This document shows positions 10,651 to 15,397 of a DNA stretch of 63,921 nucleotides, piece by piece (position 1 is the first letter of the stretch; each line of letters begins with the position of its first letter). The position numbers and the translations under genes are program-made. The notes under the pieces were generated by a model, which was not told where the DNA came from, ran no database searches, and saw nothing but the letters and a program-made list of their open reading frames with translations. Origin of the DNA: Burkholderiales bacterium (GTDB taxonomy: Bacteria > Pseudomonadota > Gammaproteobacteria > Burkholderiales > SG8-41); assembly GCA_050250695.1 (NCBI GenBank), contig JBFWOE010000004.1, positions 1 to 63,921 of the forward strand. Direction: 5' to 3'.

Positions 10651-11466
10651 TCAGCGCCTGACCCCGGGTGTTTCGACCGGCAAGCCCCGGGCGCGTTGCG
10701 CAAGATAGAACTCGAGGTCGAGGAGCTCCTCCGAACCGAACGCAGGCAAGCGGGCACGCACCCCGAAATAGCAGGAACGCAGGCGGCGGTGCAGCGACCC
10801 GGCAGACTGCCACTCCAGGCGATAAATCGGATAGGCGTTGCCATGGCCTTCACTGATCGTTTCCGACAGCAGCCTGCGCCCGACATTGCGTTCATGGCAG
10901 TGCATGCAGGCCAGGTTCATCTGGCCCTGCCTGCGATAGTAAATTTCCCTGCCGCGCCGGTAATGTTCGCGGTTACCGTCATCCACCCTGACTGCCAGAG
11001 GCAGCCCGCGTGACTGATGCGCAACATAGGCAGTCAACCCGAGCAGTTCATCAGATTCGTATGGATAGGCTTCCGCACCTTGCCGCATTTCGCGGCACTG
11101 GTTGATGCGCGCCTCGAGATTGAGCAGTTTCCCAGTGCCCTTGTCTTTCAGCGGGTAACGAACCGACACGCCCTTCATGCCGGATGCCGCATCCCGGTGA
11201 CAACTGGCACAGGATTTTCCGCTGCGTCCCTCAACGGCATTCCACAATTTTTCACCACGCGTCACCCACAGCATGCCGGGATTGGCGAAATCATCGGACT
11301 GCATGCGACGCACTTCTTCGCTGGAAAATTCGATACCGGACCTTACTGAAAGATCGCCCTGCATTTCAGCCGCAGCCACCACGCCGCCCCATAAGATCAT
11401 GATCAGCGCAGCAGCACATGTGCACCGACCAAAACCAAACCGGGTCCGCAAGAAAATATATGTCAT
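10651..11466 (-). CDS. soxA: dihaem c-type cytochrome SoxA
   Basis: 271 aa with a signal peptide. Two CxxCH motifs (CASCH, CMHCH) and the conserved cysteine in LRSCYFGVRA. ATGA overlap with the soxX stop. Confidence 0.88.
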   Translation of the reverse strand: MTYIFLRTRFGFGRCTCAAALIMILWGGVVAAAEMQGDLSVRSGIEFSSEEVRRMQSDDFANPGMLWVTRGEKLWNAVEGRSGKSCASCHRDAASGMKGVSVRYPLKDKGTGKLLNLEARINQCREMRQGAEAYPYESDELLGLTAYVAHQSRGLPLAVRVDDGNREHYRRGREIYYRRQGQMNLACMHCHERNVGRRLLSETISEGHGNAYPIYRLEWQSAGSLHRRLRSCYFGVRARLPAFGSEELLDLEFYLAQRARGLPVETPGVRR

Positions 11467-11963
11467 CGCAGGGTCTGCAGATAAGCAATGACATCTTCAA
11501 TTTGCTGGGCTGTCAGCGCGGGCCTCCCCTGCCAGGCTGCCGCCACCGATTCCAGCCCTTCGGTGCGGTAATACGGCGGCATTATGGTATTGACATTCAG
11601 GCGCTGCGAATCAACGATCCGCAAGCGCAGCTGGCCGGCATTCAGGCGCGCTCCAATTCCTGAAAGTTGAGGCCCGAGGTTCCCCATGAATCTTGTGCCC
11701 GTTTCGGGGACGGAATGACAAAGCAGGCAGTTCCCGTCCCGGCCCACAAACACCTCGCGGCCGCGCACCGCATCACCCGGATGACTGGAAAGCGGGGCAG
11801 AAATTTCATCGTTGCTGATCCGGTAGGGCACGATCCAGTCGGACGCCGCCACGCAAGCGACGAAGGCAAGCTGTAACGCTATGCACGCCGCACCGCGTAC
11901 CGCGACGCCTTTCAGAAAAACCATGTCCGCCAATCTGCGCCCTTGATCTGACTTAAGGCCCAT
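11463..11963 (-). CDS. soxX: monohaem c-type cytochrome SoxX
   Basis: 166 aa with a single CLLCH. C-terminal ...PALTAQQIEDVIAYLQTL is typical of SoxX. The ATG directly follows the soxZ stop (TGAATG). An internal Met at residue 14 is an alternative start. Confidence 0.85.
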   Translation of the reverse strand: MGLKSDQGRRLADMVFLKGVAVRGAACIALQLAFVACVAASDWIVPYRISNDEISAPLSSHPGDAVRGREVFVGRDGNCLLCHSVPETGTRFMGNLGPQLSGIGARLNAGQLRLRIVDSQRLNVNTIMPPYYRTEGLESVAAAWQGRPALTAQQIEDVIAYLQTLR

Positions 11964-12284
11964 TCACGACACAACTATTTTCGCGGTCTCAGTCAAGGAA
12001 AACCCATTATCGCCCGTCCAGCGAAACTCCAGAGTCCCGCTTTGGGCTGCCACGGTAAAAAACCAAAACAGCGGATTCGCGGTAATCGAGGGATGCAGTG
12101 TTGCACGGAAGATTTCCACGCCTTCGTAGCGGCAGACGAAGCTCGTGATGATGTTGCGAGGAATGCGTTCCCCCGTCTGCGTGTGGCGGAATCCGGTTTC
12201 CATCGGATGACGCACCAGCGCCTTGATCTCGATAACCTCGCCACGCCGGGCGGTCGCGGGTACGCTGATGATCGCATCGGCCAT
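11964..12284 (-). CDS. soxZ: sulfur carrier complex subunit SoxZ
   Basis: Start re-placed at ATG 12284 (MADAIISVPATARRGEVIEIKALVRHPMETG...), which overlaps the soxY-like stop by 1 nt (TGATG). 106 aa, typical SoxZ length and sequence. Confidence 0.85.
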   Translation of the reverse strand: MADAIISVPATARRGEVIEIKALVRHPMETGFRHTQTGERIPRNIITSFVCRYEGVEIFRATLHPSITANPLFWFFTVAAQSGTLEFRWTGDNGFSLTETAKIVVS

Positions 12285-14936: not shown

Positions 14937-14947
14937 GTCGCTGTCTC

Positions 14948-15397
14948 CTAGGCCTTGGCGGCGGCGTGAATTGCCTCGCGCACCTGCTGGAAGGTGCCGC
15001 AGCGGCAGATATTGGTGATGTTGGCATCGATGTCGGCGTCGGTCGGCTTCGGCTTCTTGGCAAGCAGCGCGGCAACCGCCATGACCATGCCCGGCTGGCA
15101 GTAGCCGCACTGCGGCACCTGATGATCAACCCATGCTTTCTGCACCTTGTGCAGCGCCTTGCCGGACGCGAGTCCCTCGATCGTGGTGATGCGCTTGCCC
15201 GCCGCGGCGCTGACCGGCACTGCGCAGGAACGAACCGCTTCACCATCGAGGTGTACCGTGCAGGCGCCACACTGGGCAACTCCGCAGCCGTACTTGGCGC
15301 CGGTAAGCCCGGCCTGCTCGCGTAGGGCCCACAGCAGCGGCGTATCAGGTTCGACATCGATCTGCTGCGCGCGGCCGTTGATATTGAGCTGAATCAT
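14948..15397 (-). CDS. (2Fe-2S)-binding small subunit of the molybdoenzyme (IorA-like)
   Basis: Start re-placed at ATG 15397 (MIQLNINGR...), with GAGGA 6 nt upstream; the track start at 15403 is TTG. Cys motifs [18 protein letters not shown] and CRCGT. Confidence 0.9.

Follow-up and report, generated by a model that had tools for sequence, protein, structure and literature searches.

Analysis of a 63,921-nucleotide stretch of contig JBFWOE010000004.1 from a Burkholderiales bacterium (assembly GCA_050250695.1; the whole stretch is hereafter called the window) revealed six consecutive minus-strand genes (positions 10651-15397), which encode a two-subunit molybdoenzyme of the xanthine oxidase (XO) family together with four Sox-like proteins, namely the carrier components SoxY' and SoxZ' and the cytochromes SoxX' and SoxA'. 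The sequence is also contained in contig JBFXAA010000001.1 (assembly GCA_050184805.1). Comparative evidence indicates that well over a hundred bacterial species keep this six-gene set together, and that the molybdoenzyme and the Sox-like genes represent one conserved functional unit whose adjacency is not due to chance. The reading proposed here, to which a probability of roughly 0.45 is assigned, is that the molybdoenzyme processes an adduct bound to the carrier in place of SoxB and SoxCD, within a non-canonical Sox-type pathway. A cluster of this type was described in 2013 by Kappler et al. (PMC3797975) as the 'second sox gene cluster' of Starkeya novella, consisting of soxX2Y2Z2A2F2 (Snov_1982-1977) and the XO-family molybdoenzyme Snov_1975/1976. 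Its conservation and the dichotomy of carrier arms are newly gathered here, and the version in the window is new in the lack of SoxF, in gene order and in its betaproteobacterial host.

Linkage of the molybdoenzyme to a distinct carrier

The linkage was scored in both directions. The SoxY'-seeded scan, with one genome per species, returned 80 loci, which were searched by tblastn with all window proteins, with SoxB, SoxC and SoxD, and with an FCSD (sulfide-dehydrogenase flavoprotein) query. All 59 loci having an AAC-type carrier arm and enough upstream DNA encode, upstream and on the same strand, a pair of iron-sulfur (FeS) and molybdenum cofactor (Moco) subunits; these are 58 loci plus a 59th (L081) in which the Moco gene is broken into three frameshifted pieces. 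The reciprocal, Moco-seeded scan covered the 80 closest homologues (71-93% identity), and SoxY'-SoxZ'-SoxX-SoxA was found downstream in 73 of the 74 that were scored, each with at least 3 kb of downstream DNA. An earlier reading of the window from sequence only had taken the Mo and Sox-like genes for one module; with these counts they are anything but rarely adjacent in related genomes. The hosts comprise Burkholderiales, numerous Hyphomicrobiales (Bradyrhizobium, Pseudolabrys, Rhodoplanes, Microvirga), Roseomonas, Geminicoccus, gammaproteobacterial metagenome-assembled genomes (MAGs) and Rokubacteria/Methylomirabilota, and the nearest relatives of the window are Burkholderiales MAGs. No conserved regulator, transporter or hydrolase was found in the flanks of 128 loci, where the commonest family, TctC, occurs in 20 and the other families are generic (SDR, ABC ATPase, solute-binding proteins), each present in no more than 20; as a clue to the substrate, the flanks were judged uninformative. 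As the flanking genes are not conserved, the conserved unit is exactly FeS-Moco-(FCSD)-SoxX-SoxY'-SoxZ'-SoxA, and the two-way co-occurrence with such unconserved flanks contradicts chance adjacency.

A few loci depart from this picture in detail. The sole exception in the Moco-seeded scan is a Rokubacteria MAG (L115, 7523-10160), where the 8 kb downstream of an FeS-Moco pair (74% identity) contain nothing Sox-like. In L081, both the Moco gene (5680-7817) and soxY' (10001-10424) read through frameshifts, as does the SoxY' C-terminus in L016 (~10400-10450), which reflects either assembly errors or pseudogenisation.

The loci are split by the type of carrier arm. Arms of the form VT[LI][AS]AC[LVI][ED].. 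occur with the molybdoenzyme, whereas VTIGGCGG occurs with SoxB, either alone or together with SoxCD. Wherever the arm is of GGCG type and enough upstream DNA is available, the FeS and Moco genes are missing, and SoxB is present in 8/10 of these loci. The carrier of the window, SoxY' (12284-12757, minus strand; 157 aa, TTG start), has a twin-arginine translocation (Tat) motif RRDFLK and the arm ...VVVTLSACIGDLV. It scores 200.4 bits against TIGR04487, the 'SoxY-related AACIE arm protein' (cut-off 172), a model matched by all 59 sampled Mo-linked carriers, and only 105 bits against TIGR04488, the model of true SoxY with the GGCGG arm, below its cut-off of 125. In the alignment of the 59 homologues A151 and C152 are invariant, and the arm Cys falls, on alignment, at the position of the carrier Cys in Paracoccus SoxY (2ox5_Y). 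The arm reads VTLSACIGDLV in the window; most relatives have [AS]AC[LVI][ED], and in the window and its two closest relatives, which read SACIGDL[VI], Gly replaces the Glu/Asp. The carrier belongs to a large family, which comprises over 7,900 clusters at 90% identity.

Gene order varies around this constant core. Burkholderiales loci most often run FeS-Moco-X-Y'-Z'-A, where soxX either adjoins the Moco gene (4-nt spacing) or overlaps with it, and the order of the window, FeS-Moco-Y'-Z'-X-A, is common to L005, L085, L088, L090 and L141. An FCSD/SoxF-like gene is present in about half of all loci; it is part of most loci from Alphaproteobacteria and Rokubacteria, inserted ahead of soxX behind the Moco gene or placed at the far side of soxA (in L027, for instance, at 8245-9528, with a PF21706 match at 1e-45) and is absent from most Burkholderiales loci and from the window, where tblastn gave no FCSD match. 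A tandem form, FeS1-Moco1-Y'1-Z'1-FeS2-Moco2-(X)-Y'2-Z'2-A, is found in the two closest relatives of the window (L003 and L004) and in L086 and L156. In L004 (7361-15802) it occupies the same chromosomal position as the window operon, downstream of mtgA/aroE; the window has the first unit plus SoxX and SoxA only, so a whole enzyme-carrier unit has been gained or lost in situ within one lineage. In the tandem clusters of L004, L086 and L156, the Moco2 copies are 74-80% identical to one another versus 57-61% to the first unit of the same genome, and the Y'2 copies 75-84% versus 46-57% to their siblings. Since the two patterns agree, IorAB and SoxY'Z' have been duplicated and have diverged jointly, with a single SoxXA serving both units. 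This co-duplication points to a specific enzyme-carrier partnership, of which it is the strongest comparative hint, and of the two options offered in the sequence-only reading it favours action of the enzyme on the carrier over transfer of electrons to SoxXA. A different arrangement was observed in L146, L152 and L153 (~4500-16700), where three FeS-Moco pairs (~69%, 75% and 51% identity to the window Moco subunit) precede a single FCSD-SoxX-SoxY'-SoxZ'-SoxA set; these pairs may be isoenzymes or catalyse successive steps.

The absence of soxB and soxCD from the window, claimed on first inspection, held up under search. The SoxB, SoxC and SoxD queries were taken from a canonical Bosea locus, the first two checked against NCBIfam (SoxB, TIGR04486, 839 bits; SoxC, TIGR04555, 637 bits) and SoxD identified by its position beside soxC and a weak cytochrome c match. 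None of the three was found by tblastn in the window (E<=1e-6), to which the search of the host genome was confined, or in the 10 kb around any locus with an AAC-type arm. In a further 30 ORFs (open reading frames) of the window, Pfam scans found no Metallophos/5'-nucleotidase or Oxidored_molyb domain, all of these being housekeeping genes (metH, mreBCD, gatAB, gshAB, amtB/glnK, PTS EI, metXW), and the remaining ORFs were covered by public gene calls. A rhodanese (32819-33250) and a Pyr_redox_2 protein (26035-27378) were considered as missing partners and rejected: both are surrounded by housekeeping genes at a distance of 13-20 kb, and the Pyr_redox_2 protein does not resemble FCSD. The Mo-linked cluster and a canonical Sox system can nevertheless coexist, since a SoxB-seeded genome scan overlapped with the Mo-linked loci in at least one assembly, Bradyrhizobium sp. 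MAG E19_concoct.bin.29, which has the former (L109) and canonical SoxB (L196) on different contigs; the same is reported for Starkeya.

Architecture of the operon and its products

The ORF listing, direct reading of the strand, and Pfam and NCBIfam searches bear out the six genes with the domains and positions assigned to them in the sequence-only reading, as well as the junctions between them. The first gene (14948-15397, minus strand) encodes the IorA-like small subunit of 149 aa, with matches to PF01799 (Fer2_2, 4e-29) and PF00111 (Fer2); both [2Fe-2S] cysteine motifs are present in the translation, one of them being CGYC..CRC. The large subunit, of IorB/membrane-bound aldehyde dehydrogenase (ALDH) type (12744-14936, minus strand; 730 aa), carries the Tat motif RRSFLV and the catalytic Glu in GIGEP, and matches PF02738 (MoCoBD_1, 1e-29) and PF20256 (MoCoBD_2, 1e-33). 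Its best match in PDB is 8gy3_C, an aldehyde dehydrogenase large subunit, over the full length (E 1.8e-69). Over 97% of homologues retain the catalytic motifs: GxGEP, with the catalytic Glu, in 136 of the 139 and the Tat RR in 137. Because all NCBIfam equivalog scores fall far under cut-off (173 versus 780 for XdhA, 116 versus 1180 for PaoC), the Moco enzyme fits no named enzyme family. No FAD_binding_5/CO_deh_flav_C gene was found in the cluster. By their domains and motifs, the two subunits are predicted to form an enzyme of the XO family (molybdenum hydroxylases), IorAB subtype.

The remaining Sox-like products meet the models of their canonical counterparts. SoxZ' (11964-12284, minus strand; 106 aa) matches PF08770 at 9e-26 and TIGR04490 with 80 bits (cut-off 76). 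SoxX' (11463-11963, minus strand) is a monohaem cytochrome c with a Sec-type leader, a CLLCH site and 77.7 bits against TIGR04485 (cut-off 61), and its single CxxCH is present in 121/121 homologues. SoxA' (10651-11466, minus strand) is a type-1 dihaem cytochrome with CASCH and CMHCH sites and the haem-ligand Cys in RLRSC; it scores 227 bits against TIGR04484 (cut-off 110), its alignment to Rhodovulum SoxA (1h31_A; E 6e-51) brings the haem-ligand Cys into register, and two CxxCH sites occur in 108/108 homologues. SoxX' and SoxA' are the only c-type cytochromes of the operon, as had been noticed before. The further claim that all products carry export signals did not hold, as a signal peptide is missing from both the FeS subunit and SoxZ'. 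Presumably these two are co-exported with their Tat-signal partners, as in known SoxYZ and in other molybdoenzymes exported by the Tat pathway.

The genes are tightly packed. An 11-nt gap separates the FeS stop from the Moco ATG, within which TAGGAGA provides GGAGA, and GAGGA lies 8 nt 5' of the FeS ATG. Direct reading of the soxY' frame gave an in-frame TGA at 12772-12770, and TTG 12757, 14 nt within the Moco gene, is the sole start codon ahead of the conserved RRDFLK, as previously proposed. The soxY'/soxZ' and soxX'/soxA' junctions are TGATG and ATGA overlaps, respectively, and the soxA' stop lies 4 nt from the convergent kup stop. The soxZ'/soxX' junction, TGAATG, has the zero gap once ascribed to it if soxX' starts at ATG 11963 (166 aa); two public gene calls on an identical sequence differ, and with the alternative ATG 11924 (153 aa) there is none, so that the zero gap is one of two readings. 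The same two sources place the soxA' start at ATG 11466 or 11400 (271 or 249 aa); the longer version has the better signal peptide, which the short call would strip. A pattern scan found no convincing internal terminator in the operon, the single terminator-like match, within soxX, being inside shuffle expectation. Taken together, the six genes are predicted to form one operon that encodes a self-contained periplasmic module, inherited and moved as a unit.

The sole sizeable non-coding stretch of the cluster is the 247-nt region between mtgA and the FeS gene (15398-15644, minus strand), presumed to hold the operon promoter, in which no sigma-70 consensus site was found. A terminator-like hairpin (15436-15420) after mtgA, followed by TTTTTC and located 23 nt upstream of the FeS start, probably ends the mtgA transcript. 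It leaves little promoter room before the ribosome-binding site; the true promoter may lie upstream of the hairpin, or the operon may be transcribed by read-through from mtgA. The GC content at third codon positions is 0.79-0.80 in the FeS, Moco and SoxY' genes versus 0.65-0.68 in those of SoxZ, SoxX and SoxA, with the break at the soxY'/soxZ junction. Horizontal acquisition of the latter three was considered and rejected, because nearby aroE (16415-17239) is just as low (0.64), which makes the drop unclear evidence of foreign origin. At 1064-8590, upstream of kup, the window holds a Glu_synthase / Fer4+Pyr_redox_2 / POR / TPP_enzyme_C cluster resembling 2-oxoacid:ferredoxin oxidoreductase, followed by an ORF for a PF14808 (TMEM164-like) membrane protein (7886-8590).

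Possible function of the module

From this composition we infer that the enzyme acts on a tethered adduct, and with it the chemistry of that adduct, the path of the electrons and the exit of the product from the carrier. SoxXA' would oxidatively attach a sulfur compound to the single invariant Cys of the dedicated carrier SoxY'Z'. The IorAB/membrane-bound ALDH-type enzyme, exported in folded form by the Tat pathway, would then fill the position of SoxB/SoxCD and oxidise the carrier-bound adduct, and the two [2Fe-2S] clusters would hand the electrons on to a c-type cytochrome, which may be SoxXA or some general cytochrome c. The altered, longer and acidic arm would insulate SoxY' from canonical SoxB and SoxCD.

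The substrate is probably not thiosulfate for lithotrophic growth. In S. novella grown on glucose, methanol or thiosulfate, the second cluster showed very low expression and proteomes contained no detected SoxAX2 or SoxYZ2; the authors suggested that the cluster has no functional significance under those conditions (Kappler et al. 2013, PMC3797975). Being barely expressed on thiosulfate, this cluster type is not the main thiosulfate system of Starkeya, and the same data disfavour plain lithotrophic thiosulfate oxidation. In Bradyrhizobium diazoefficiens, thiosulfate oxidation needs soxY1 and not soxY2 (PMC5748708), which would argue likewise if soxY2 belongs to this cluster type. A sulfane or polysulfide-type adduct appears likeliest because most relatives carry the FCSD/SoxF-like sulfide-dehydrogenase flavoprotein, and an inorganic substrate of the sulfane type is favoured by the frequency of FCSD together with the closeness of SoxA' to thiosulfate-oxidising SoxA. 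It is a bolder and less probable step to see in the IorAB-type enzyme the first of the XO family with a protein-tethered substrate, held on the Cys arm of SoxY', perhaps oxygenating sulfane sulfur; the widespread module would then be an alternative branch of sulfur oxidation in the periplasm of soil and freshwater bacteria, independent of SoxB and SoxCD.

Several points weigh against processing of a carrier-bound adduct by the molybdoenzyme. To our knowledge, no XO-family enzyme uses a protein-bound substrate or oxygenates sulfur, and members of the family are established to hydroxylate C-H bonds of sp2 carbons or, with a Mo-Cu site, to oxidise CO. A hydrolase for release of the product from the carrier is not encoded in the cluster. 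In several loci from Alphaproteobacteria a single SoxY'Z' is accompanied by two or three IorAB pairs, so that a strict 1:1 pairing of enzyme and carrier is not universal. As soxX directly follows the Moco gene in most Burkholderiales loci, a simple electron-acceptor role for SoxX fits equally well.

Four alternatives were weighed. The chemistry could be carbon-centred, with an organosulfur or carbonyl compound tethered to the SoxY' Cys, as a mixed disulfide or thiohemiacetal formed by SoxXA or spontaneously, and hydroxylated at carbon by the IorAB-type enzyme; the candidates are a heterocyclic thiol or thione and an aldehyde, and the carrier would capture a dilute or toxic substrate. Such a role agrees with the ordinary hydroxylase Glu (GxGEP) of a Moco subunit most like aldehyde dehydrogenase, with the linkage of other divergent SoxYZ-like carriers to pyrroloquinoline quinone (PQQ)-dependent alcohol, methanol and formate dehydrogenases (TIGR04557 name; PMC11237559), and with the tandem IorAB isoenzymes of some loci, which resemble an expansion of substrate range. 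It is nonetheless unlikely: both the similarity of SoxA' (45% class) to the thiosulfate-oxidising SoxA of Rhodovulum, with the persulfide-ligand Cys kept, and the FCSD/SoxF-like sulfide dehydrogenase as the commonest extra gene point to inorganic sulfur, and no conserved transporter or regulator in the flanks of the 128 loci hints at an organic substrate.

Alternatively, the enzyme could oxidise a free substrate and use SoxXA solely as electron acceptor, in replacement of the cytochrome c third subunit, with SoxY'Z' playing a separate, regulatory or protective part. Related enzymes such as 8gy3 do have a cytochrome c subunit, for which only SoxX and SoxA are available here, and the position of soxX directly behind the Moco gene in most Burkholderiales loci (4-nt spacing or overlap) suits a transfer of this kind. 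Left unexplained, however, are a distinct carrier with an invariant-Cys arm in 59/59 loci and the co-duplication of IorAB and SoxY'Z' without SoxXA; moreover, SoxA keeps its catalytic Cys-ligated haem, which is superfluous in a pure electron carrier. This explanation is accordingly held to be somewhat less probable than carbon-centred chemistry.

A role in cofactor maintenance is distinctly improbable. Here SoxXA, with or without SoxF', would load sulfane sulfur on SoxY', and the carrier would re-sulfurate the Mo=S group in the periplasm, beyond the reach of the cytoplasmic XdhC/PaoD-type machinery. It is established biochemically that XO-family enzymes depend on a cyanolysable Mo=S ligand and lose it easily; the strict co-occurrence of enzyme and carrier fits a dedicated chaperone, and a release hydrolase would be unnecessary. 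Other periplasmic XO-family enzymes (PaoABC and other IorAB types), however, do without such a system, repair would be a costly use of four accessory proteins, one of them a catalytic trihaem cytochrome, and nothing in the data marks this subfamily as unusually labile.

Finally, although the near-absent expression in Starkeya, with no functional significance suggested (PMC3797975), and the treatment of such genes as stray paralogues in large surveys (PMC13500833) suit an ordinary iorAB beside a redundant, non-functional partial sox copy, this is scarcely credible, being contradicted by the two-way co-occurrence across several phyla with unconserved flanks, by the preserved catalytic motifs and translational coupling of the genes, and by a distinct and conserved arm motif.

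Relation to known Sox systems and molybdoenzymes

By the tally of large surveys, soxA, soxX, soxY and soxZ each have about a thousand or more stray copies outside canonical clusters, which are taken as duplicates in a 2026 survey of Sox evolution (PMC13500833). That survey, which treats stray Sox paralogues, and a 2024 study of SoxY diversification (PMC11237559), which treats divergent ones, leave the link to XO-family enzymes unmentioned, and no literature report of the conservation, arm dichotomy or function of the cluster was found. By the data gathered here, one large class of these 'stray' sox genes is a fixed partnership of a distinct carrier type with an XO-family molybdoenzyme, spanning at least the Alpha-, Beta- and Gammaproteobacteria and the Rokubacteria/Methylomirabilota, and the conservation data turn a curiosity into a well-defined system. 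If the enzyme does work on the carrier arm, this would widen the known chemistry of the XO family and add a new route to the oxidative sulfur cycle of soils; counts of 'sox' genes in metagenomes would also need rereading, as members of this class should not count towards thiosulfate oxidation.

The sequence-only reading had named no characterised system of this composition. This remains valid as far as characterisation is concerned; the composition itself was noted in S. novella in 2013 (PMC3797975), and the carrier has a curated model, TIGR04487. The second cluster of Starkeya shares with the window the copies of SoxXA and SoxYZ without SoxB and SoxCD, in one operon with an XO-family molybdoenzyme, and a SoxA of dihaem type 1 (PMC4003848). 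It differs in having the flavocytochrome SoxF2, which the window lacks, and in its alphaproteobacterial host, whereas the window derives from a Burkholderiales MAG with the order FeS-Moco-Y'-Z'-X-A and soxY' overlapping the Moco gene. That the two are equivalent is concluded from the published description and from loci L006-L063 of Alphaproteobacteria.

With the canonical Sox system (Kelly-Friedrich; Paracoccus, Rhodovulum) the window has in common a periplasmic set of SoxXA with Cys-ligated haem, SoxZ and a SoxY-fold carrier with the aligned Cys. The canonical system has SoxB and SoxCD and the arm VTIGGCGG, whereas the window has VTLSACIGDLV and an XO-family enzyme instead. The three-subunit membrane-bound aldehyde dehydrogenase 8gy3 and IorAB likewise combine a [2Fe-2S] small subunit with a Tat-exported Moco subunit containing the catalytic Glu, and have no FAD subunit; the window enzyme differs from them in lacking a dedicated cytochrome c subunit and in being always tied to Sox-like genes.

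Two further systems pair a Sox-type carrier with a dehydrogenase. In Campylobacterota, soxCDY2Z2 encodes a molybdoenzyme with its own SoxYZ apart from the SoxXA/SoxB set (PMC12936845), a precedent for such a pairing; there the Mo enzyme is SoxC, of the sulfite-oxidase family, accompanied by the cytochrome SoxD, whereas that of the window belongs to the XO family and has an FeS subunit. The SoxYZ-like carriers linked to PQQ dehydrogenases (TIGR04557; SoxYZ-S2/S4, PMC11237559) also represent divergent carriers tied to a periplasmic dehydrogenase and not to SoxB; they are SoxY-SoxZ fusions associated with PQQ enzymes and without SoxXA, in contrast to the clusters described here, in which SoxY' and SoxZ' are separate proteins and SoxXA is always present.

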